Positions 7,603 through 49,072 of a stretch of 64,000 bases of DNA are shown in pieces (position 1 is the first letter of the stretch; the number at the start of each line of letters is the position of its first letter). A program made the translations under genes and the position numbers. The stretch is from positions 8,017-72,016 of the IMG/VR virus record IMGVR_UViG_3300026130_000003, one strand, 5' to 3'. This stretch comes from a virus. The notes beneath the pieces are model-generated. The model was not told the DNA's origin. It saw only the letters and a program-made list of their open reading frames with translations, and ran no database searches.

Positions 7603-8431
7603 TCAATGTTTTCTCTAATATACTTAACTTTTCATCTGTTAACCACATCTTATTTACATAATGGAATGGCATCGTCTGTCTGTAGTTACCTACATACAAA
7701 CTCAAATCGTCTCCTAGTGTACAACCCAATGATTCTTCCCAGTTATCTTCAACACCTCTTACATTTTGCACTTTACTTTTCATATGTACAAATGTAGGTG
7801 TCGGTCTAGGGTCAGTTACTTCACCCTCAATCCCTAACACCTTGATTAAAAAAGCATATGCTAAGTCTGCACTTAAACTGTCCTGTCCAGGACCAACTAA
7901 GAAAGATTCGTAATAGCGATTCCAGTCTTGAAATATATGTTTCAACATTCTAAAAAAGTGAAACGCATAATCTCCTTTTTTGAAGTACATCATATTAGTA
8001 TATACGTTAGGCAACTTTTTGTCTACAAATTTTATTCTGTAGTTATTTGCATTTACAACTTCGCCTCTAAATGTTAATGTGTGATTTGGTAACCACATAT
8101 CCTTTTCTTGAAGTGTATCCCACCAAAAATCTATGGGTTCTACGAATAACATATCAACGTCAAGTACCATAGTTTCATCGAACGGCGACAAGTCGTAGTA
8201 CATCCACTTGTTGTCGATTTTCCATCGTGTGTCAACTTCCGGAACCATAACTATATGGTCAAATACTTTTTTATGGTCATCAGTGATAAGTTTTGCTGTT
8301 GTTTCGTCTGTACACAAGCAAAAATCTTTTACTTCTAATTGAGTTGCTTTAATACTTAAAGCCAAAGCGTATGCCATTCTTAGGTAATCGTCTCTGCTAT
8401 TTTGTGCTATTGCGATATATCCTTTAGACAT
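7595..8431 (-). CDS. GT-A glycosyltransferase (GT8/mannosyltransferase-like)
   Basis: YLRMAYALALSIK, SPFDETMVLDVDML (DxD), HMK. Confidence 0.7.
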   Translation of the reverse strand: MSKGYIAIAQNSRDDYLRMAYALALSIKATQLEVKDFCLCTDETTAKLITDDHKKVFDHIVMVPEVDTRWKIDNKWMYYDLSPFDETMVLDVDMLFVEPIDFWWDTLQEKDMWLPNHTLTFRGEVVNANNYRIKFVDKKLPNVYTNMMYFKKGDYAFHFFRMLKHIFQDWNRYYESFLVGPGQDSLSADLAYAFLIKVLGIEGEVTDPRPTPTFVHMKSKVQNVRGVEDNWEESLGCTLGDDLSLYVGNYRQTMPFHYVNKMWLTDEKLSILEKTLND

Positions 8432-34759: not shown

Positions 34760-37308
34760 TATGGTTCTCCATCCAATTGTACAGTAACTTCACCTTTAAA
34801 TTTCTTTTCATATTCTTTTGCGGCATCAAGTCGTATCATAGACAGTGTTTGTGTGAATGCTCCGCCAGAAAAACTAGATTCAATATCTTTAACAAAATAC
34901 AAATACGTGAACAAGTTATCTATTTTCAAATTGTCATTCTCATCCGAACCATTAGGAGCATTACGTATTAACATTACAACATTAGTTCCAGCAATACCAT
35001 ATTGTAGATTTCTCTCTTTGTCAGCATTCACTACTTGAAGTTCCGAAACATGTTCTATTTCTCTGGTCTTAGGTTCAGTCACCGGAGAAATCCAAAAAGG
35101 ATCACCTACAATAGTCATCTCAGCATTGACCATACTCAAATCTATATTATGTCCTTCATCAAACTTGTGATTTACTATGTCTTCATCAATTTGAATATTT
35201 GAAGATACAGAAGATGCTCTACGCATATTTTCTATGTACTTATAACTAGAAGACCTGAACATTCCTGGATTAGTCAATATTATGTCAAGCAATTGTTGTT
35301 TTTCTTTAGAGGTCAATGATAATACTTTATCGTCATCTAAATTTTCAAGTAACATTATGCCATTGCCTCGACTTTGTTCTCTTATCGTTTTAACATCTTC
35401 ATATAACTTGTTACTTGCGTTTGTTGATTGAACACCAAACACTATATCAAATGTTTCGTTGTCATTTGATTTTAATTGATTTTGTTTTTCAAATTGTGCG
35501 GTTCTAATATTTTGAAGTCTTCTCCATTCACTATCTTGTTGCTCAACTCTTGAGGCAATATTAGAGTCAGATAGTGCTTCTGCAACTAATGAATCATCTG
35601 CTGCCGCCATTCGTAACTCAGTGAATGATTTGTCGTTGTACTGCGCCATCAACGCTCTCTCAGGTCCATCACCTCCTAATCCTAGATTAGAACGGATAGC
35701 AGAAAGTATTTCGTTTTTAACTTCTCGGTTTTCGTTGTCAAAGTTTTTTTCTTGTCTTTCCAAATCTCTTTTAACTTGTTCGTATTCATTGGTTAAACGA
35801 ATATGGTCAGAACTTAACTCTTCTAGTCTGGCACGTGCTTGGTCATTGATACCTTCAAGACCGCGTATATAGTTTTCTAAATGCTGGTTTATACTGTAGT
35901 TACTTGTGAAGTTATTAGTAGTCTTGGTTAACTGTCTATTGAGTTTCACTTCCAATGCCAAGATATCAGTATTTAACCCAGTATAGTCACTGTAATATTT
36001 CTTAACAAGTCTATTTTGCTGTAGTAGTTTGTCTATATTACTCGTTACATGTGTTGACTTTTCTGCCAAATCTGTTATATTTTGGTCAACAAATTCTTCA
36101 CGTATGTCAAGAAAATACTTTATATCGTATGCTTGTGTACCAGTGACCATGTTAAATCCATTAATCTTAGGCACTGTATGTACAGTGATATGTGGCAACT
36201 TCGTAAATGTGTTACTAGTTTCAGTTAACGACTTAGCAACATTCATTGAATGAAGTACCAAATCACGTAACGCATATTTTATACTCGTTCCAGCATGAAC
36301 TGTAGCAATAAAACCGTTTTGTGTCATTTCTAATGGCAATCTGCCCTTTCGCTCCGGATCTGCTTTATTAGACGCTTCCTGATAGTTAGGTTTGCTGGAA
36401 TCCATTATAGGATTGTTTTTACCATATGTGTTTTTAAAGTTTTCTGAAAACTCAAAGAAGTAAGAATTTTGATATTGAGTATCGTTAGTAAAACGCAATT
36501 CTGCTAGATATTGGTCTATTGCACTTTCTAAGTTTTTAACCGTAGTTTCTAATGTATCTCCAATTTTATATTCGATATCTTCAATAACAATGTCGTTTTC
36601 AGGTTTATTGCCCATATCTGTAGCAATGACACCTTCCAACGTTGCTACTGTACCTTCTAATGTAGTAGATGTTTGTATGTCGTTTATGTTACTGATTACA
36701 AATGGTATCAATCTTCTATCTGGTAAGTTGTATGCTTCACCATCATGACCATATCCTGTGAATGTTATATCTATAAAGAATGTAGCATATGCGATTGAAG
36801 GATAACCCATAATTTTAATTGCTTTGAGTATGTTGTCTATTAGAAAGGCGTTACCAACACTAGTCAAAGTAAATGAAAGATGTGTGCCCACACCACCATG
36901 GTCTAGACCTTGAGTGTTACCTATACTTCTGATAGTCAAATCATCTATCATTATCTCAGTTGTCAAACCAGTTTGTGCGATAACAATGGCATCATCTGAT
37001 GGCCATGAACCAGAAAACATATCATCGATACTTACTTCACCATTTAAAAACCTTCTAGTTTCCAACTGGTCTACAATAAACATTTTCAAGTTATAGGTAT
37101 ACGTTTCATACTCATGTAACGGATTGGGAACCCAATCGTTAGTTCGTTCAATACTATTCAAGTTTCCTAGTGAGTTATCCTGAATTATTTCGTTTCCCTG
37201 ATTGAATTGACTTTGTTGTTCAGGAGTCGCATTAACCTCTGGACTTTGAACAAGTTCAGGATTGTTAGACGAATAGAGTTTGACTATTTCCTCGTTAGTT
37301 AACGCCAT
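34759..37308 (-). CDS. Baseplate hub protein (gp27-like / tail protein D-like)
   Basis: NPLHEYETYTYNL start, AEMTIVGDPFWI, LYFVKDIESSFSGGAFTQTLSMIR end. Lies between gp53 and gp5. Confidence 0.6.
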   Translation of the reverse strand: MALTNEEIVKLYSSNNPELVQSPEVNATPEQQSQFNQGNEIIQDNSLGNLNSIERTNDWVPNPLHEYETYTYNLKMFIVDQLETRRFLNGEVSIDDMFSGSWPSDDAIVIAQTGLTTEIMIDDLTIRSIGNTQGLDHGGVGTHLSFTLTSVGNAFLIDNILKAIKIMGYPSIAYATFFIDITFTGYGHDGEAYNLPDRRLIPFVISNINDIQTSTTLEGTVATLEGVIATDMGNKPENDIVIEDIEYKIGDTLETTVKNLESAIDQYLAELRFTNDTQYQNSYFFEFSENFKNTYGKNNPIMDSSKPNYQEASNKADPERKGRLPLEMTQNGFIATVHAGTSIKYALRDLVLHSMNVAKSLTETSNTFTKLPHITVHTVPKINGFNMVTGTQAYDIKYFLDIREEFVDQNITDLAEKSTHVTSNIDKLLQQNRLVKKYYSDYTGLNTDILALEVKLNRQLTKTTNNFTSNYSINQHLENYIRGLEGINDQARARLEELSSDHIRLTNEYEQVKRDLERQEKNFDNENREVKNEILSAIRSNLGLGGDGPERALMAQYNDKSFTELRMAAADDSLVAEALSDSNIASRVEQQDSEWRRLQNIRTAQFEKQNQLKSNDNETFDIVFGVQSTNASNKLYEDVKTIREQSRGNGIMLLENLDDDKVLSLTSKEKQQLLDIILTNPGMFRSSSYKYIENMRRASSVSSNIQIDEDIVNHKFDEGHNIDLSMVNAEMTIVGDPFWISPVTEPKTREIEHVSELQVVNADKERNLQYGIAGTNVVMLIRNAPNGSDENDNLKIDNLFTYLYFVKDIESSFSGGAFTQTLSMIRLDAAKEYEKKFKGEVTVQLDGEP

Positions 37309-37598
37309 TAACTCATCCTCGATATATTATCTGCTGATGGTACTCGTATAGTTGTACCTGCGGTAAAATCAAACACTGGATCCTTGATTGTGTTTTTGTT
37401 TCGTTGTGCAAATATCCACCAGTACTTAGAAGTGCCATAACGGTCGTAACTAAACAAGTCAGGACGTTTATCATACTTTTGTTCAATGACATAAACTTCA
37501 TCCAAAGGATCTTCGTATATGTATCTTGGCACTTGCAAATCTAAAATAGTTTTATCTACTGTTGGGGTTTTAAACCACGGACTATGCTTTTCGTACAT
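37308..37598 (-). CDS. gp53: Baseplate wedge gp53-like (LysM-like) protein
   Basis: RPDLFSYDRYGTSKYWWIFAQRN...G..IRVP. Confidence 0.75.
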   Translation of the reverse strand: MYEKHSPWFKTPTVDKTILDLQVPRYIYEDPLDEVYVIEQKYDKRPDLFSYDRYGTSKYWWIFAQRNKNTIKDPVFDFTAGTTIRVPSADNISRMS

Positions 37599-37599
37599 T

Positions 37600-38196
37600 T
37601 TAGATATACCCCTTATTTCTTAAATTACCCATCGAATAATCACGTAATGAAAATTCACCTCGCACTTTTGCCGGAGCGTATGTAGTACTCAGAGACAATA
37701 CAAATGTACTTGATACTGGCAAATATGCAACAGTTCCGTTGTTATCAAACGGTATATAGTCTACATCGTTTTCAAAGTTCCATTGGAATCCTGCGACTAC
37801 AACAGGAACATTGGTATATATGTTGTTGATATGCAATCGTAGAACAGGCGGTGGGAGACCTTTACTTTCGTCCTTTTCACCAAAATGCATTTTCATTGCC
37901 GCTCTGAAAAACTGAGACATATCCAACACTTCTTCTGCATCTAATTCTGTGCGAATAATCATAGGTGCAATCAACGAAATCTCTGCGTTGGTACCGCTTT
38001 GAAATATTTTTTGTTGATAGTTAGAATGCGTCGGATCGTAACTACTGTATCCCGCATCGCCACTTATACTAATGGTAGGCGTGTAGGGAAAAGATACTTT
38101 CCTACGGTTCAATCTGTTGGCGGGGTCGGTTATATAGACCCTTTCTTCTGCTTCTCTGGTTTGGTCGTACAGACTTTTTGGTATTGCCATTTGCAT
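37600..38196 (-). CDS. Tail tube initiator / baseplate tube cap (gp48/gp54-like)
   Basis: FPYTPTI, THSNY, GLPPPVLRL, NVPVVV, DVDYI. Confidence 0.6.
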   Translation of the reverse strand: MQMAIPKSLYDQTREAEERVYITDPANRLNRRKVSFPYTPTISISGDAGYSSYDPTHSNYQQKIFQSGTNAEISLIAPMIIRTELDAEEVLDMSQFFRAAMKMHFGEKDESKGLPPPVLRLHINNIYTNVPVVVAGFQWNFENDVDYIPFDNNGTVAYLPVSSTFVLSLSTTYAPAKVRGEFSLRDYSMGNLRNKGYI

Positions 38197-38214
38197 GTCT
38201 CCTATTTCATAGTT

Positions 38215-38244
38215 GTATTTATCTTCGTATAAACTACGAAGTTT
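38215..38244 (-). promoter_or_regulatory. Late promoter GATAAATA with palindromic upstream element CTTCGTA-TAAAC-TACGAAG
   Basis: Second copy of the 29735-29764 element. Heads the baseplate operon. Confidence 0.65.
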
Positions 38245-38260
38245 TAGAAATAGGAAGTAT

Positions 38261-38298
38261 AAAAAAATCCCTTCACACCGTAAGATGTAAAGGGATTT
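38261..38298 (-). terminator. Intrinsic terminator
   Basis: AAAUCCCUUUACAUC-UUAC-GGUGUGAAGGGAUUU-UUUU. Confidence 0.85.
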
Positions 38299-38370
38299 GA
38301 CTTCAGATTTAAAAATGAGTTAACCACGCAGTGAGAGGTTAAGAGAGAGGAGACACGTTGCTAACTCATT
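38261..38370 (-). ncRNA. Candidate ~110-nt small RNA with a CU-rich (anti-SD-like) loop
   Basis: Own promoter (38377-38405). 11-bp plus 5-bp stem starting at the predicted +1, loop UCUCCUCUCUCUUAACCUCUCAC, strong terminator. Confidence 0.7.
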
Positions 38371-38376
38371 AATATC

Positions 38377-38405
38377 ATTATCTCAAATAATGATAGCCCT
38401 GTCAA
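38377..38405 (-). promoter_or_regulatory. Sigma70-type promoter TTGACA-N17-GATAAT
   Basis: -35 at 38400-38405, -10 at 38377-38382. Overlapped by the inverted repeat TATCATTAT/ATAATGATA. Confidence 0.65.
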
Positions 38406-38411
38406 GGGTTT

Positions 38412-38588
38412 TTACAAATTATTTTTCTTTTCTTGAATTTCTTTACGGCGTTCTTTTGCTAGTTTACCAATTTCACCCAATGCCTTGCGAGCACGAGCGG
38501 CGGCTGCTTTTACTCCTTTGGTTTCAAATGCTTCGCTTTCTTTTAGGTAAATTGCCATTTGTTCTTCAATTTGTTCGTGAATTGTCAT
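38412..38588 (-). CDS. Small basic histone H1-like (Hc1-family-like) protein
   Basis: Likely start MTIHEQ at 38588 after AAGGAG. KGVKAAAARARKALGEIGKLAKERRKEIQEKK. Confidence 0.7.
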   Translation of the reverse strand: MTIHEQIEEQMAIYLKESEAFETKGVKAAAARARKALGEIGKLAKERRKEIQEKKNNL

Positions 38589-38631
38589 TTTATTCTCCTT
38601 GTTTATATGTTGGCATTCCAACATCTTTTAT

Positions 38632-40422
38632 TTATGTTTTATGTTCTAATTCTTCAGTTATATCCTGAGGATCTTCCTGATGGAACGTAGTGAAACCATT
38701 CTCTTTGGTAACGTTCAATATGTCACTAACACGACCCATCAACTCTTCCTTATGCGATACAAGGAAGATTGACCTATTTCGTTCTCGGGTCATTTTCTTC
38801 AAAATACCCAATGCAGATTCAGCACCATTTGTATCCATACCACTATCCATCAATTCGTCAACAAATAGTACATTGATAGTTGAGTAAAGTGATTCAAACA
38901 CATCACGGAATGCCCACGATAGTCCCAGAATCAAACGGTTGCGCTCGCCTCGTGACAAGTTACCAAAGTCCAAGTCTCGTCCCAATTCTGTAATCTCTAC
39001 TGTCAAGTCACTTTGGAATACAACTGAATGTGGCAGTCCAAGTTTGTCAAGATAATATTCGAGTCTGTTGTTCAAGTAACTAAGGTTTTGGTCTATAATC
39101 TTCTTACGTATGAAACTATCTTTACTTGTTAGCAATTTAATCAAAAAGTCTTGGTGATCCTTGAGAGATACAAGAGCATTCATATGAGTGTAATCAATTT
39201 CTGCTAGTGCGTTTTCTCTAAGTTCTTTGATTTGGTCATCGTATGGATTAATCGCATCTTTCTTACTAGCAATTTGATCCTGCAACGATTTCACTGAGTT
39301 CTGATGTTCGTATGCCTCAGTAACCGACGGATAAAATGGTTCTGGTTCGTCACCTAAAGTTTCTTCCTCAGCAATAACACCAAGATGTTCTTCTAATTGT
39401 GCTAAGTCACTGACGGCCTGTAGTGCCGCCTCTTGTTTTTGTTCTTCTTTAGATTTTAGAATCTCTTCCTGTTTAGAATCGTGAAGTTCTTGACCGCAAC
39501 TATGACACTTGTGGTCTACGAGTAGTGCTATCTCCGCTTCTAGTTTTTCTACAAGTTTTTCGTTCTTGTTCACACTAGTTTTGATACGTTCTGCCCACTT
39601 TTTAGAATCGTTGATTTTGGACAGTTTAGCAGTATACACCGTTAAGTCTTCATGTAGTTTTAGTTCTTTGTCAATTTCTATGTGTGACAATGATTCCAAT
39701 GCTTGTTCTAATTCTTCAATCTCTGATTTGTGAGTTTTAGTCCATACTTTGGCTCTTCGTTCTACACTCGCAATGTTTTCTAATATACGTTTGTTTGCTT
39801 GTTCTTTAGCGGTGAGGTTGTACTCTTCCTCTTTAATCAAATCTTTAGTTTGCTTGATTTGTTCTTTGAGCAAATCTGCCTTACGAGACAATTCAGTGAT
39901 ACCAAGAAGTTCTTCAATGAGTTCTCGTTGATCGCCTGCCCGCATACTAAGAAACGGTTCAGTATATGTGTTGAGTGCGACTACGTGCTTAAACATTGTA
40001 TGCGAAATACCAATGATAGAATCTACTTCTACTTGTGTTTCTCGCATTTCGCCTTGTGCGTGGTCTTCACCGTTCATATCTATACCGTCTTTTAGAAAAC
40101 GGAATACATTGGGAGAACGACCGCGCTCTAGACGATATTCGTCACCGTTATATTCAAAATCAACAGTAACAAGCATGTTCTTACCGTTAGTCTTGTTGAT
40201 AAGGTTGTTTTTCTTAATATCTGACAATGCGTTACCATACAATGCATATGATAGAGCATTAATGAGTGTAGTCTTACCAGTACCGTTTCGACTACCATCA
40301 CCACCTAAGTCAACGTTGTTGCCCAATACCAAGGTTAGATTCTGTCTATTAAGGTCTATAACTTGTGTAACGTTACCAACGGATAAGAAGTTACGAATGG
40401 TTATGTTCTTAATCTTTAGCAC
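38632..40422 (-). CDS. gp46: Recombination endonuclease ATPase subunit (Rad50/SbcC-like)
   Basis: Walker A NGTGKTT, zinc hook CHSC, signature LSRGE, Walker B FVDE, SH. Confidence 0.93.
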   Translation of the reverse strand: MLKIKNITIRNFLSVGNVTQVIDLNRQNLTLVLGNNVDLGGDGSRNGTGKTTLINALSYALYGNALSDIKKNNLINKTNGKNMLVTVDFEYNGDEYRLERGRSPNVFRFLKDGIDMNGEDHAQGEMRETQVEVDSIIGISHTMFKHVVALNTYTEPFLSMRAGDQRELIEELLGITELSRKADLLKEQIKQTKDLIKEEEYNLTAKEQANKRILENIASVERRAKVWTKTHKSEIEELEQALESLSHIEIDKELKLHEDLTVYTAKLSKINDSKKWAERIKTSVNKNEKLVEKLEAEIALLVDHKCHSCGQELHDSKQEEILKSKEEQKQEAALQAVSDLAQLEEHLGVIAEEETLGDEPEPFYPSVTEAYEHQNSVKSLQDQIASKKDAINPYDDQIKELRENALAEIDYTHMNALVSLKDHQDFLIKLLTSKDSFIRKKIIDQNLSYLNNRLEYYLDKLGLPHSVVFQSDLTVEITELGRDLDFGNLSRGERNRLILGLSWAFRDVFESLYSTINVLFVDELMDSGMDTNGAESALGILKKMTRERNRSIFLVSHKEELMGRVSDILNVTKENGFTTFHQEDPQDITEELEHKT

Positions 40423-40434
40423 TATTGTCCTCTC

Positions 40435-41448
40435 TTATAGGCTATTGTAGATGTTAATAAGTAGATTCTTATCAAATGTACCATATAGTTCGGAGATTTG
40501 TGTGATAACAATTTCGTCAATTGTTTCGAAATGTATTTCTGCACCCGTGTCTTCCATATGTTCCGTATTTTTAATAGGAACAAGCGAAATGTCACGTAGG
40601 TTGTAAGTCTCCACAAATGTATCCTTGATAAAATTTGCTTCTTCATAACTAATGTCTATGTCCAATGAAACCTTAGCACTAGTCTTAGGAAGAAGATACT
40701 TACCAGGATCTTCTAGTAACGTGCTTAGGTTAATGTTACGATACTTAGGTGCATGAGGCCACGCAAAGAATTCAGGGTCTTCACCCCATTCTATTGTCAT
40801 TAGACCTCGTTCATCATCCCACGAATCACTAAAGTTGTGAGGGAATGCATTGCCTATGTATATGATGTTGTCTTTGATTTGTCGTTTGTGGAAGTGCCCA
40901 GAAAACACATAGTCTTGATGTTTGAACATTCCGCCTTTCAAGCCGCCGTGGTCTGGCATTTCCACCATCGCATTAAGTTTGAATGTAGGAAGTTCAAAAT
41001 GTCCAAACATATACTTAGATTTGATTTTAGGAATTTTCTTCCATTCATCACCTACCAGCCACGGTACAATGGCAACATCACCTTCAACTAGTGTTTCTTC
41101 CACTAGAACAATGTTCGGAAACTCTTTTGCAAATTCAACAGAATTGACTTCTCGGTTTTCACGATAATACAAATCGTGATTGCCTAGAATAAAATAACAC
41201 TTTTCAAAGGCGTCATTGAGTTTACGCAACGCCTCTAAACTAAACTTTAATGTTGATATGTTAAGACTTGCTCGTTGATGGTGCCAGTCACCACAAAAGA
41301 TAAAAGTTTCACAACCTTTATCCTTAGCAGTTTTAATTGACCAATCAACAAAGTCCATACAATCTTGGTTATGTTGCTTAGAGTTGTTGCGGAGACCCCA
41401 GTGTATGTCTGTGAACACTGCTGCCTTTTTGAAAAGATTATCAGTCAT
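40435..41448 (-). CDS. gp47: Recombination endonuclease nuclease subunit (Mre11/SbcD-like)
   Basis: DIH, GD, GNHD, GHF and SGHFH phosphoesterase motifs. Likely start MTDNLFKK at 41448. Confidence 0.93.
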   Translation of the reverse strand: MTDNLFKKAAVFTDIHWGLRNNSKQHNQDCMDFVDWSIKTAKDKGCETFIFCGDWHHQRASLNISTLKFSLEALRKLNDAFEKCYFILGNHDLYYRENREVNSVEFAKEFPNIVLVEETLVEGDVAIVPWLVGDEWKKIPKIKSKYMFGHFELPTFKLNAMVEMPDHGGLKGGMFKHQDYVFSGHFHKRQIKDNIIYIGNAFPHNFSDSWDDERGLMTIEWGEDPEFFAWPHAPKYRNINLSTLLEDPGKYLLPKTSAKVSLDIDISYEEANFIKDTFVETYNLRDISLVPIKNTEHMEDTGAEIHFETIDEIVITQISELYGTFDKNLLINIYNSL

Positions 41449-42337
41449 CTTCCGAGTATATCTCTTTGATAGTTTCTGTTGGGATTTCATCATCCGTTAT
41501 TGTTGTGTTCTTCACTCGTTGCCAACGCTCATGCGCTTGTAACTCATGTTCTAGTTGTCGTGTCCAACTAGGTGCTTGACCTATACTTTCTAATAGATCG
41601 TCTCGCAAACCTTGATTCTTTTTCTCATTGTTTAGTACACGAGTAAAAGAGTTGTTCACAACAGCAGTATAGTATGCAAACGGGTTATCTGATTTATCTT
41701 CGCTAAACTGTAGACCAATTTGCGCAAGTTGAAGCAATGCTTGACCGCGCATTTCATCTACATAAGTGTAGCCACGCCAGTTAGAACGTTGGGAAAATCG
41801 TTCAACCAGTTTGATATACATATTCGCTAGTGTAGCAGTAATCTTACCGTGAGTCAAGTCAAATTCTTTGTTGCTGTTATAATGTGAAATACCTACACAT
41901 ACAGCCTCACCATCTTTCAAGATGTAATGCTTGAATGGCGGGAAATTCAACTTCGCTTTGTAATCTCGAGGATGTTTTGGATTACGCTTACGTCCTGGTT
42001 CATCAGGAATGTGCTCAAACGTCATTACACGGAATACGATTTCATCATCTTCAAATGTATTGGCATCTACCACAAAGTCAACTTTTTTCTTAGACTTGTC
42101 AGTGTTTAAATCCCAATCAAGTGTTTGTAAACGTTCTGCTTTGTTTTGTTTTGCTTCATCTAAACGCTTTTTCATTTCATCTAAAACGTTTAGATCACCC
42201 TCTTCGTTGTTAATAATTAAATCAAACTGATGGTACTTTTCTCTGTCTTCGAACCAACAGTGGTTCGATTTTGATATATGGATTTGCTTGAGCATATCCT
42301 TATTGTTTAGGTAGTTAGGACCTCTTCTTTGAGACAT
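41441..42337 (-). CDS. gp55: Late-transcription sigma factor (gp55-like)
   Basis: NYLNNKD, NWRGYTYVDEM, F...KSDNPFAYYT...NSF...EKK. Adjacent to gp47/gp46 as in T4-like phages. Confidence 0.8.
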   Translation of the reverse strand: MSQRRGPNYLNNKDMLKQIHISKSNHCWFEDREKYHQFDLIINNEEGDLNVLDEMKKRLDEAKQNKAERLQTLDWDLNTDKSKKKVDFVVDANTFEDDEIVFRVMTFEHIPDEPGRKRNPKHPRDYKAKLNFPPFKHYILKDGEAVCVGISHYNSNKEFDLTHGKITATLANMYIKLVERFSQRSNWRGYTYVDEMRGQALLQLAQIGLQFSEDKSDNPFAYYTAVVNNSFTRVLNNEKKNQGLRDDLLESIGQAPSWTRQLEHELQAHERWQRVKNTTITDDEIPTETIKEIYSEDD

Positions 42338-47295: not shown

Positions 47296-47423
47296 TATCA
47301 CCATCCTATAGAGGTCTTTAACAAGACCTAAGCCCTCATAAAAACTCAAACTTCGTAAACTCAGTTTTCGTTTTTAATCGGTCTTTTCTCTGCCGAGGGC
47401 TATTAAGAGAATTATTGTGCTCT

Positions 47424-47431
47424 TATTTATA
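47424..47431 (-). promoter_or_regulatory. T4-type late promoter TATAAATA for the resolvase gene
   Basis: Exact T4 late consensus. Confidence 0.55.
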
Positions 47432-47434
47432 TCA

Positions 47435-47875
47435 TTACCAGGAGGAGCCACAATTGCCCCGTTGCCGGGGCAAATGGTTAACTCGGATATTACCGAGGTG
47501 TCACCTCTGTTTATGGGTTAGTCTCCAGATAGACGAGGTAGGTTGGCGATCCCCTCTTAACCCAGTACTTGCGACTTTCGTCCCAACGGCACCTTAAACA
47601 TATCTAAACAGACCAATATGAATAAAGCCGGCAGTGATTTTGTATTTCCTGCCATCAGTGTGTGCGTTCTCTGGTTTTTCACAGTTCATCGGCACGGTTA
47701 CTCTGGTATACATGCGGTTACATGTATTTTCCGCAAGAATAGGTAAGTATCCTTGCTCATTACAGACTATTTTGCAGATTTACGAGAAGCGTGGAAGCGC
47801 CTAACCTTCCTATTCTGACGGCAACACCATTACGATGGCAGTCTCAATCCCGGATACAATGTATCATCCAGTTCT
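47435..47875 (-). ncRNA. Candidate large, ornate non-coding RNA of unknown family
   Basis: No credible ORF. At least ten hand-identified stems, including long-range 8-9 bp helices. GNRA tetraloops and G-U pairs occur only in the minus-strand reading. Boundaries are approximate. Confidence 0.7.
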
Positions 47876-48005
47876 GCTTGTAAGTATAGTTCACTACATT
47901 TTAGATAGTTTTAGTTTTAAGACGCTATAAGACCTTGGTGGTCGGATTCTGAAGTCGGTTTTTATATAATAATATTCTGGATGTTTCCGTCGTTACTGAC
48001 GGGTA

Positions 48006-48239: not shown

Positions 48240-49072
48240 AAATTTATAGGATTTACCTCAATATTCACTTCGTCTACATTCCCGCATTCTGGGCATGTGA
48301 ACTTTAACAAGTTTGAATCATCAGGCTTCTTAGATAATTGTACAGCAATTTGGTTGATCTTGTCAACTACTTTTCCGGGAATATTGAACATAAATTCGTC
48401 AATAAATGCCTTGTCAGTCACTATTTCACCATCTTCGGTTTCTATTTTGTAGATTGCTTCTGTTAGAAGACTAACATTGTGTTGTACAATCTTATTGAAA
48501 CTTTGGTAAAATCGTTTTGCAAGTTCCATGTCACCATCTGGATCTTCGTCCGATACACTGCTTTCAATTTCTAGTAAAATCTTTTTACGCTCTATATCCA
48601 TAAGACTCAAACGAGTTACACTTTCAACTGTTGCAGGTGAGATATAAATTTTTATACCCTCATGTTCAACAACAGGTATCTCTTTAATATCCGGAAACCT
48701 ATTCATAAGTTGATTCAAATCAACTTTGTAATCTGTCACTGCGTCACATTCTGTACATTGATGCGTGTGCTCTATGTCCTTTCCGGAACTGGCATACTGT
48801 ATTGCTAGGAACAATGACTCCGCATCTATGTTACATAGTTTTCTTGGATTTGGAATCGAAGGCACACAACTTTTGATGACATTGATGAGAGCCTCACCGT
48901 TTAACAAAGCATCTGGATTCTGTAATGATATTTCATCTAGCGCAGTCATTGGTAAAATTGGCACTTCATCCAATATGGTCTTATCAATCTCTGGATTGAA
49001 TAAACCATTGGTTGGCAATGTAACGTACATTGCAGGTTTTCTGAAATACTTACTCAGTGGGTTGTTTGACAT
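48221..49072 (-). CDS. Baseplate hub assembly / tail assembly chaperone (gp26/gp51-like)
   Basis: YVTLPT, PMTALDE, LAIQYAS, two CxxC pairs (CTEC, CPEC). Divergent from the tape-measure-like gene. Confidence 0.7.
   Translation of the reverse strand: MSNNPLSKYFRKPAMYVTLPTNGLFNPEIDKTILDEVPILPMTALDEISLQNPDALLNGEALINVIKSCVPSIPNPRKLCNIDAESLFLAIQYASSGKDIEHTHQCTECDAVTDYKVDLNQLMNRFPDIKEIPVVEHEGIKIYISPATVESVTRLSLMDIERKKILLEIESSVSDEDPDGDMELAKRFYQSFNKIVQHNVSLLTEAIYKIETEDGEIVTDKAFIDEFMFNIPGKVVDKINQIAVQLSKKPDDSNLLKFTCPECGNVDEVNIEVNPINFSIAGS

Follow-up and report, generated by a model that had tools for sequence, protein, structure and literature searches.

The 64,000-nt stretch analysed here (hereafter the window) covers positions 8,017 to 72,016 of the IMG/VR virus record IMGVR_UViG_3300026130_000003, a 72-kb viral record whose estimated completeness of 20% implies a jumbo phage. 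On its minus strand, between a gene for an Hc1-type histone H1-like protein and a gene for a 198-aa virion structural protein, a compact unit spanning 38405-38261 combines a promoter, a stem-loop with a CU-rich apical loop and an intrinsic terminator. The best reading of the data is that this unit is a genuine small RNA gene of a lytic phage and belongs to an RNA family not described before, found in an uncultured marine phage clade related to phage PA5oct, in which it is the most divergent member known. It is very probable that a functional, independently promoted small RNA (sRNA) exists at this locus. The unit consists of the following features, with base pairs taken from the minimum free energy (MFE) fold.

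38405-38400, minus strand: -35 element TTGACA, preceded by an A-rich stretch.
38385-38377, minus strand: extended -10 element, made up of TG (38385-38384), A and GATAAT (38382-38377), after a spacer of 17 nt from the -35 element.
38314..38370, minus strand: stem-loop 1, in which 38370-38360 pair with 38324-38314 (11 bp) and 38358-38355 pair with 38329-38326 (4 bp).
38330..38354, minus strand: apical CU-rich loop GUCUCCUCUCUCUUAACCUCUCACU, 25 nt, unpaired.
38299..38313, minus strand: A/U-rich linker, in which the second small hairpin of most relatives is absent.
38261..38298, minus strand: intrinsic terminator, with a stem at 38298-38265 (15 bp, 4-nt loop) and seven U residues at 38267-38261.

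A preliminary description of this DNA, made from its letters and open reading frames (ORFs), had proposed a self-contained sRNA gene here, and its TTGACA-N17-GATAAT promoter, 11-bp stem and 15-bp terminator with a U tract were all found as it had placed them. The predicted +1, A38370, lies 7 nt past the -10 element and is the first base of the stem, giving a predicted transcript of about 105-110 nt. The CU-rich loop is likewise present, although its length had been given as 23 nt by counting one G-U pair more than the MFE fold, which leaves 25 nt open. Within the loop, the two half-sites UCUCCUCUC and AACCUCUC are separated by a UCUU insertion that is specific to the window. The 116-nt RNA folds at -34.9 kcal/mol, compared with -17.0 +/- 2.8 kcal/mol for 200 dinucleotide shuffles (z = -6.3), none of which was as low. 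No ORF of at least 30 aa is located inside the unit on the minus strand, in line with the preliminary description; on the plus strand, two mechanical ORFs extend over its edges (38178-38300 and 38390-38668). With a score of 11/12, the promoter ranks first among the 21 promoter-like sites in 36000-41000. Sites of the sigma70 type scoring at least 11/12 are enriched in the window (13, compared with a mean of 3.5 and a maximum of 9 in 50 block shuffles), which fits an early use of host RNA polymerase by the phage. Because such sites are common, the promoter alone is unremarkable, and it is the comparative data that lift the unit above chance.

A protein search with the SbcC/gp46-like nuclease subunit encoded upstream identified 80 related viral loci, a sample that is independent of the RNA. 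Among the 18 closest (66-70% identity), the unit was found shortly 3' of gp46 in 17, and the remaining locus ends before that point. The main loop, GUGUCUCCUCUC(UC)AACCUCUCUCA, was present in 13 of these 17 loci and a variant loop, UUGUUACCCUCU(C/U)AACUCUCAU, in four. In the 62 more distant gp46 loci the loop motif was absent from this context, and a covariance model of stem-loop 1 (R1, described below) gave nothing in the 22 of them that were searched. A locus search with the 198-aa protein returned no loci. A scan of viral stretches for the loop pattern produced 56 matches, of which 43 were family members and 13 unrelated. With metagenome and loop-variant scans, the family amounts to 43 distinct sequences, that of the window included. 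Because the loop itself served to find these additional members, its identity among them is partly a circular result, whereas their promoters, stems and terminators are not affected. The RNA occurs once per genome in four large records, including a complete 342.6-kb genome with terminal repeats.

The promoter is conserved throughout the family. In the 43 distinct sequences the -35 element reads TTGACA (35), TTGACT (7) or TTGATA (1), 40 spacers are 17 nt long and three are 18 nt long, the TG of the extended -10 element is present in every sequence, and the -10 element is always of the TAnnnT type (GATAAT in the window). A terminator follows the stem-loop in every aligned member. The stem sequences themselves diverge widely among subtypes, and when unanchored sequences were aligned with MAFFT and folded with RNAalifold, the 3' arms were misaligned and stem-loop 1 was not recovered. 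The model R1 was therefore built from nine clean seed sequences with a structure given by hand; it recovers all main-type members and matches stem-loop 1 of the window with 27.8 bits (E about 5e-4). Variants of the L003 type are out of its reach at E <=1 and were assigned by synteny and architecture.

The preliminary description had proposed to look for covariation in relatives, and it was found. In a 20-sequence alignment fitted to R1 (16 distinct sequences), two-sided, compensatory changes were present in 10 of the 15 stem pairs. Furthermore, 87.9% of the cells in this alignment were standard-paired, compared with 37-46% when the partners were slid by 1-3 columns, and the covariation score of 0.531 was matched by none of 500 shuffles (mean 0.204). 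Because this alignment was fitted to the model, single-sequence MFE folds served as an independent check, and in 26 of 26 members they gave stem-loop 1 with an unpaired CU loop followed by the terminator. Most relatives carry in addition a small second hairpin (UCUC..GAGA, with an AGAG(A)GCA motif), which covaries in the variant type: UCUCUGU/ACAGAGA, UCUCUAUA/UAUAGAGA and UCCCUAUA/UAUAGGGA.

Conservation of the loop, on which the preliminary description had staked its proposal, proved to be the strongest of the whole unit, with 24 consecutive invariant columns among 14 main-type sequences. The loop varies in length by 0, +2 nt (L002 type) or +4 nt (window), and the L003 type differs at several loop bases. 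Thus the unit shows the features of a generic stand-alone sRNA gene, namely a conserved promoter of its own, a terminator without a conserved reading frame and compensatory changes in the stem, and the view of a self-contained gene is upheld by the 43 distinct sequences. The copy in the window is the most divergent, lacking the second hairpin and being followed by a late structural gene.

Comparison with Rfam 15, also suggested earlier, gave no match at the gathering threshold in the whole window. The locus itself collected 14 weak hits; the best, to NsiR1 (24.3 of 39 bits) and PyrR (26.2 of 54 bits), are sub-threshold and fall mostly on the terminator. In one subtype only, a 136-aa protein encoded upstream of the RNA (L011:6021-6431, plus) carries a phosphoribosyltransferase-like phosphoribosyl pyrophosphate motif (Pfam PF00156, E 0.015, below the cut-off); its coincidence with the PyrR likeness was regarded as fortuitous. 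No close relative at the DNA level was found in a collection of isolate phages. The nearest isolates by gp46 were Pseudomonas phage PA5oct (50% identical), Sinorhizobium phage Phosso and Agrobacterium phage Atu_ph07. PA5oct has neither an Hc1-like gene nor the RNA unit after gp46, and R1 found no match in the whole PA5oct record. Matches to the Hc1-like protein among isolate phages were limited to two 'Marine virus AG-345' records, and the RNA is downstream of the gene in neither.

The neighbourhood of the unit in the window is composed of the following genes and signals.

41441-42337, minus strand: gp55-like late sigma factor gene.
40435-41493, minus strand: SbcD/gp47-like nuclease subunit gene.
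38632-40422, minus strand: SbcC/gp46-like nuclease subunit gene.
38412-38624, minus strand: Hc1-type histone H1-like ORF (Pfam PF07432, E 6e-12).
38412..38588, minus strand: Hc1-like gene counted from its probable start, ATG 38588, with the Shine-Dalgarno (SD) sequence AAGGAGA at 38600-38594.
38203-38194, minus strand: ribosome-binding site (RBS) of the 198-aa gene, AGGAGACAUG.
37600..38196, minus strand: 198-aa virion structural gene, 3' of the RNA (phrog_12050).
Beyond the 198-aa gene, minus strand: a baseplate wedge gene and a large structural gene.

The later start of the Hc1-like gene fits the alignment of its relatives, whose proteins match that of the window from residue 10-13 on. Its stop codon lies 6 nt ahead of the -35 element, and there is no terminator between them, so the RNA unit also forms the 3' end of the gp46/Hc1 transcript. 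The preliminary description had called the 198-aa product a tube initiator, a label that PHROGs does not bear out, as it gives only 'virion structural protein'. The position of this gene 3' of the RNA is seen only in the window's lineage. In relatives and in PA5oct the structural module with this gene and the baseplate wedge gene is located upstream of gp55 on the opposite strand (positions about 800-1400 in L002-L019), which indicates that the window's lineage was rearranged right at the 3' side of the RNA (37600-38260) while promoter, stem and terminator were kept perfect. Ahead of the 198-aa gene is a late-promoter-like ATAAATA (38222-38216, minus), and the same motif occurs about 20 nt before the RBSs of several structural genes in the relatives G001 and G002 as well. 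We take it to resemble the T4-type late promoter, and its place near structural genes fits the gp55-like sigma factor encoded at 41441-42337.

Across the family, an Hc1-like gene is directly upstream in 75 of the 101 instances with sufficient upstream sequence. In other subtypes the RNA directly follows gp46 or unrelated small genes, and in more distant relatives the Hc1-like gene is present but the RNA is missing. The preliminary description had expected the unit to lie between the Hc1-like and tube-initiator genes in relatives too, but the next gene in 36 of 39 distinct members was found to encode the same 55-63 aa basic SutA-like protein. The Pfam family SutA-RBD was detected in 12 of the 12 proteins tested, and a profile of the protein matched the solved SutA chain 7f0r_G (E 8.5e-6). 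SutA is an RNA-polymerase-binding protein. The phage gene lies, for example, at L011:6863-7036 (plus), L003:6201-6386, L010:6419-6607 and L082:4710-4877, and its product may merit a study of its own. The start codon of this gene follows the U tract after 10-25 nt in 21 members and after 33-38 nt in six, and in seven members of the L003 variant type a sigma70 promoter is located between the terminator and this gene. The SutA-like gene is not downstream of the RNA in the window or in the L097/L276 type (2 members), the latter having a DNA ligase gene with its own sigma70 promoter in that place. The unit is thus intact in three downstream contexts, namely a SutA-like gene, a DNA ligase gene and, in the window, a late structural gene. 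A tblastn search of the window's 72-kb record found no SutA-like gene; a SutA-RBD search of this record was also without a match, but it gave none in 14 control genomes either and is uninformative.

The host of these phages is probably an alphaproteobacterium, as judged from their sequences. The complete relative (G001, 342.6 kb) encodes 11 tRNAs and a two-piece transfer-messenger RNA (tmRNA; L327:1167-1530) with the tag ANDNYQPEMAMAA, which matches Rfam alpha_tmRNA with 122.6 bits. The idea of a cyanophage was rejected, since a search that did detect its positive control found no psbA in two large relatives, and it is the tmRNA type together with this absence that points to the host class. 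Searches for a cellular homologue were negative: there were no family members among 120 loop-pattern matches listed from genome contigs, and R1 gave no match in 151 genomes of the class of a Roseovarius metagenome-assembled genome (Alphaproteobacteria). The 17-mer of the loop, with up to two mismatches, occurred in 73 of 401 genomes, and the promoter-hairpin-terminator anatomy was present in none of the 16 contexts inspected. Eight such near-matches were located in one 1.8-Mb genome (G112, L443-L450), whose inspected contigs have a strikingly G-poor, CT-rich strand; this composition accounts for the matches and has nothing to do with the RNA family.

Taken together, these data suggest how the RNA may act. 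Host sigma70 RNA polymerase would start at about A38370 early in infection and stop at the intrinsic terminator, yielding an RNA of about 105-110 nt whose long stem displays a single-stranded loop of 23-25 nt with two C/U-rich half-sites. The loop would be the working part and would most likely pair in trans with purine-rich, SD-like stretches (GAGAGG / AGGAGA) of host mRNAs, and perhaps of some phage mRNAs, so that ribosome access is blocked or decay is triggered. Early synthesis, as the preliminary description had assumed, is plausible from the sequence, because the promoter is of the host sigma70 type, while the phage has a gp55-like late sigma factor of its own. The RNA might then belong to an early host-takeover cluster together with the Hc1-like nucleoid protein and, in relatives, the SutA-like RNA-polymerase-binding protein. 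A trans-acting pairing RNA is favoured by the loop that is always unpaired, the two CU half-sites, the insertions tolerated between them, the sRNA-type 3' end and the three downstream contexts. As a whole, we hold this proposal of an early trans-acting phage sRNA that pairs with SD-like sites through its CU loop tentatively, at slightly less than an even chance.

To examine possible targets, genes were crudely called in three sequences (the 72-kb record of the window, the complete relative and another relative that is 92% complete), and the contiguous complementarity between the loop and translation initiation regions (TIRs) was scored. Translation of the phage genes is guided by SD sequences: SD-like motifs precede most of the 471 genes called in the complete 342.6-kb relative. 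The preliminary description had pointed to AGGAGA as the RBS of several genes, and this motif was confirmed at -20..-4 in 9 of the 68 genes called in the 72-kb record. One striking site in the complete relative can form an unbroken run of 13 Watson-Crick pairs (AGAGGAGACACUU) with that phage's loop, from the SD sequence to position -1 of a gene for a 196-aa signal-peptide membrane protein (G001, L313:4132-4735, minus), compared with at most 10-11 pairs for reversed and shuffled loops. In the window's record, the RBS AGGAGACAUG of the 198-aa gene can form 10 bp, one of them G-U, with CGUGUCUCCU in the RNA, the best TIR match of the 68 called genes, and the RBS of the prohead protease gene, AGGGGUUAAGA, forms 11 pairs (one G-U) with the window's RNA.

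Several results weigh against the proposed pairing. Complementarity was not enriched, as the TIRs of the complete relative scoring at least 8 numbered 23 for the real loop, 12 for the reversed loop and 19, 46 and 5 for three shuffles. The 196-aa gene was absent from the five other records searched, including the window's own, and the site was kept in none of 80 homologues of this gene elsewhere, from a family that is widespread in viral contigs. The second-best site in the complete relative is broken by one inserted base in a close relative. The matches at the 198-aa and protease genes do not exceed what chance would give, and two complete relatives lack the latter site at their protease gene. 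Autoregulation of the Hc1-like gene was rejected as well, since the longest contiguous complementarity was only 4-7 nt in 22 distinct pairs of Hc1 TIR and loop. Loop complementarity to RBSs is only generic, no conserved phage target was found, and the anti-SD mechanism of the preliminary description is not borne out for phage mRNAs. With no conserved target among phage genes, host mRNAs are the probable targets. The conservation data call for caution too: loop invariance is partly circular for members found by pattern, so that the 17 gp46-derived loci alone are unbiased, four of them with the variant loop; the covariation count comes from an alignment fitted to R1; and invariance over all 23 nt exceeds the usual seed and fits recognition by a protein at least equally well. 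Finally, in 21 of 39 distinct members the next gene begins only 10-25 nt past the U tract, which leaves no space for a promoter and means that read-through transcripts must exist.

A bolder form of the pairing proposal, which we consider improbable, is that the RNA is a phage-made mimic of anti-SD sequences, namely the 16S rRNA tail or host C/U-loop sRNAs of the cuckoo/Yfr1 type. Produced early and abundantly from its near-consensus promoter, such a mimic would use its two CU half-sites to occupy host RBSs with GAGAGG / AGGAGA or to hijack a host sRNA regulon. If this were true, a mimic RNA would shut off or re-route host translation while the Hc1-like protein compacts the nucleoid and the SutA-like protein retargets RNA polymerase, and host takeover in lytic jumbo phages would have an RNA component.

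The read-through transcripts lead to the first alternative, in which the unit is a cis-acting 5' leader of an early operon beginning with the SutA-like gene. Here the CU loop, with or without the second hairpin, would recruit a factor or modify RNA polymerase to pass the terminator (antitermination like that of nut/boxA or put, or factor-dependent attenuation), and the short RNA would mainly be a by-product. The order of promoter, structured RNA, terminator and gene is the classic leader arrangement, and both the constancy of the next gene in 36 of 39 members, 21 of them without promoter space, and its SutA-like identity speak for it. As in nut sites, a single-stranded CU-rich element lies 3' of a presumably early promoter and 5' of a terminator and early genes. 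The loop is also loosely boxA-like, as seen when CUCUUAAC of the window is compared with the gammaproteobacterial consensus GYTCTTTAANA given in the available text of 10.1101/091223: the critical C4 is present, but G1 and U6/U7 differ, and no member matches this consensus perfectly. Unlike nut, the phage element is in a hairpin loop, and the second hairpin has no conserved loop to serve as boxB. The unit is, however, intact without a SutA-like gene downstream, both in the window and in the L097/L276 type, where the ligase gene has its own promoter, and the L003 type places a sigma70 promoter between terminator and gene. Nor was a conserved pairing that competes with the terminator, as in an attenuator or riboswitch leader, found in the folds of 26 sequences. 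In folds of sequences truncated ahead of the terminator's 3' arm, its 5' arm was unpaired or had <=2 pairs in 13 of 26, and the others showed unrelated weak pairings, without a shared antiterminator. The downstream SD sequence paired with the loop in just 2 of 36 MFE folds, which are free of pseudoknots. On balance, a leader function appears unlikely.

The near-invariance of the loop gives weight to a second alternative, in which the RNA would be made early and in abundance and its tandem half-sites, CCUCUC-AA-CCUCUC, would bind and titrate an RNA-binding protein of the host or the phage. By analogy, candidates might include NusB-NusE, ribosomal protein S1, Rho, cold-shock proteins and the Hc1-like or SutA-like neighbours. 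In support of such a decoy, hardly any base of the 23-nt loop varies, whether in the half-sites, the AA spacer between them or the flanking G-U-G and A, whereas stems, linkers and terminators vary freely; the half-site repeat is dimer-like; a conserved complementary phage site was not found; and the RNA sits in a cluster of nucleic-acid- and RNA-polymerase-binding proteins. On the other hand, no known protein motif is matched, the boxA consensus included, and known sponges usually carry many sites rather than two. The 4-nt (window) and 2-nt (L002 type) insertions between the half-sites and the several loop changes of the L003 type are easier to accommodate with base-pairing seeds than with a fixed protein footprint. 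We attach a low probability to titration of a protein, equal to that of the leader, and regard both as serious alternatives. If one of them were true, the family would be either a novel type of antitermination leader in phages or a novel RNA that titrates a protein.

It is very unlikely that the RNA has no function of its own, with the hairpins serving the gp46/Hc1 operon only as a 3' untranslated region and terminator, or acting at the DNA level, and with an incidental promoter. The missing terminator between the Hc1-like gene and the unit and the frequency of sigma70-like promoters in the window would agree with this explanation. It is opposed by a promoter kept in 43 of 43 sequences with its spacing and TG, by a second covarying stem of 12-15 bp with an invariant loop, which a plain terminator module does not need, and by the occurrence of the unit directly after gp46 without an Hc1-like gene or after unrelated small genes. 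A small peptide whose start codon would be the GUG at the loop's 5' edge can be practically discounted, for although many relatives have an SD-like, purine-rich 5' arm (AAGGAAG or AAAGAUG) 4-6 nt ahead of this GUG, the frame ends after five codons in the window, the L003 type has no GUG, and loop indels of 0, +2 and +4 nt that shift the frame, together with conservation at every base and no third-position pattern, exclude a coding function.

Returning to an RNA that pairs in trans, its functionally closest kinds are sRNAs with C/U-rich loops, that is cuckoo/CcsR, Yfr1 and RsaE, the last being another C/U-loop sRNA; for each of them, membership fails on the defining motif and the architecture. 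Cuckoo RNAs (RSs0680/CcsR, SmelA075) and the phage RNA both have variable stems around a conserved C/U-rich, anti-SD-like loop. In the available text of PMC4615179, cuckoo RNAs are described as two to four adjacent hairpins, each with CCUCCUCCC, the family model allows loops of 9-27 nt, and the RNAs are thought to pair with ribosome-binding sites. The phage RNA, by contrast, has a single CU-loop hairpin with UCUCCUCUC..AACCUCUC and lacks CCUCCUCCC, and it is phage-borne with one copy per genome, whereas cuckoo RNAs are chromosomal and multi-copy. The likely host class, taken from the tmRNA, suits this comparison, but R1 was found in none of the 151 genomes of that class.

In Yfr1, a cyanobacterial sRNA, the C/U-rich motif sits between two hairpins, while in the phage RNA it occupies an apical loop. 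The Yfr1 motif, ACUCCUCACAC, whose sequence appears in PMC2190773 and PMC2796815, is ultraconserved and unpaired, with variable helices flanking it. It coincides with the phage loop UCUCCUCUCAA at 8 of 11 bases. Yfr1 is host-encoded, the phages are without psbA, and Yfr1 was not among the 14 weak Rfam hits at the locus. The chlamydial sRNA IhtA represses translation of Hc1 (hctA), as stated in the available portions of PMC4355289 and PMC3469542, and thus shares with the phage RNA a tie to an Hc1-family gene, which consists here in adjacency (75 of 101 instances). Unlike IhtA, the phage RNA shows no specific pairing with Hc1 and occurs without an adjacent Hc1-like gene, and there is neither a likeness in sequence nor an Rfam hit. 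PA5oct belongs to the same wider lineage as the RNA-bearing phages. According to the available text of PMC7318152, this jumbo phage relies on host RNA polymerase and has four non-coding RNAs of 236-619 nt detected by RNA-seq, which are longer than the RNA described here and are encoded at other loci.

Our literature search found nothing resembling this RNA family; it returned sRNAs of temperate phages and a few transcriptome-derived non-coding RNAs of obscure role instead. To our knowledge, regulatory RNAs are almost unexplored in strictly lytic phages, jumbo phages above all. This is a new phage-borne RNA family whose probable mode of action is familiar, defined by comparative evidence alone: a near-consensus early promoter, a covarying stem, a 23-nt loop fixed amid drift and a cluster of small genes for presumed host takeover. 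With one obvious functional surface and about 40 natural variants, this single RNA offers a handle on how giant marine phages may control host or phage gene expression through RNA, and the covariance model is ready for annotating such phages.

A further region of the window may be of interest. About 650 nt at 47350-48005 (minus) are without a minus-strand ORF of at least 40 aa in the listed part, 47300-47800, and gave no Rfam match at E <=0.1. By eye, the region is GC-richer and structured, with sigma70-like promoters just upstream at 48366 and 48169 (minus); a second non-coding RNA or an insert of intron type may lie here. The sequence GGGUUAAGAGGGG within it is complementary, if G-U pairs are allowed, to that part of the sRNA loop which only the window has.

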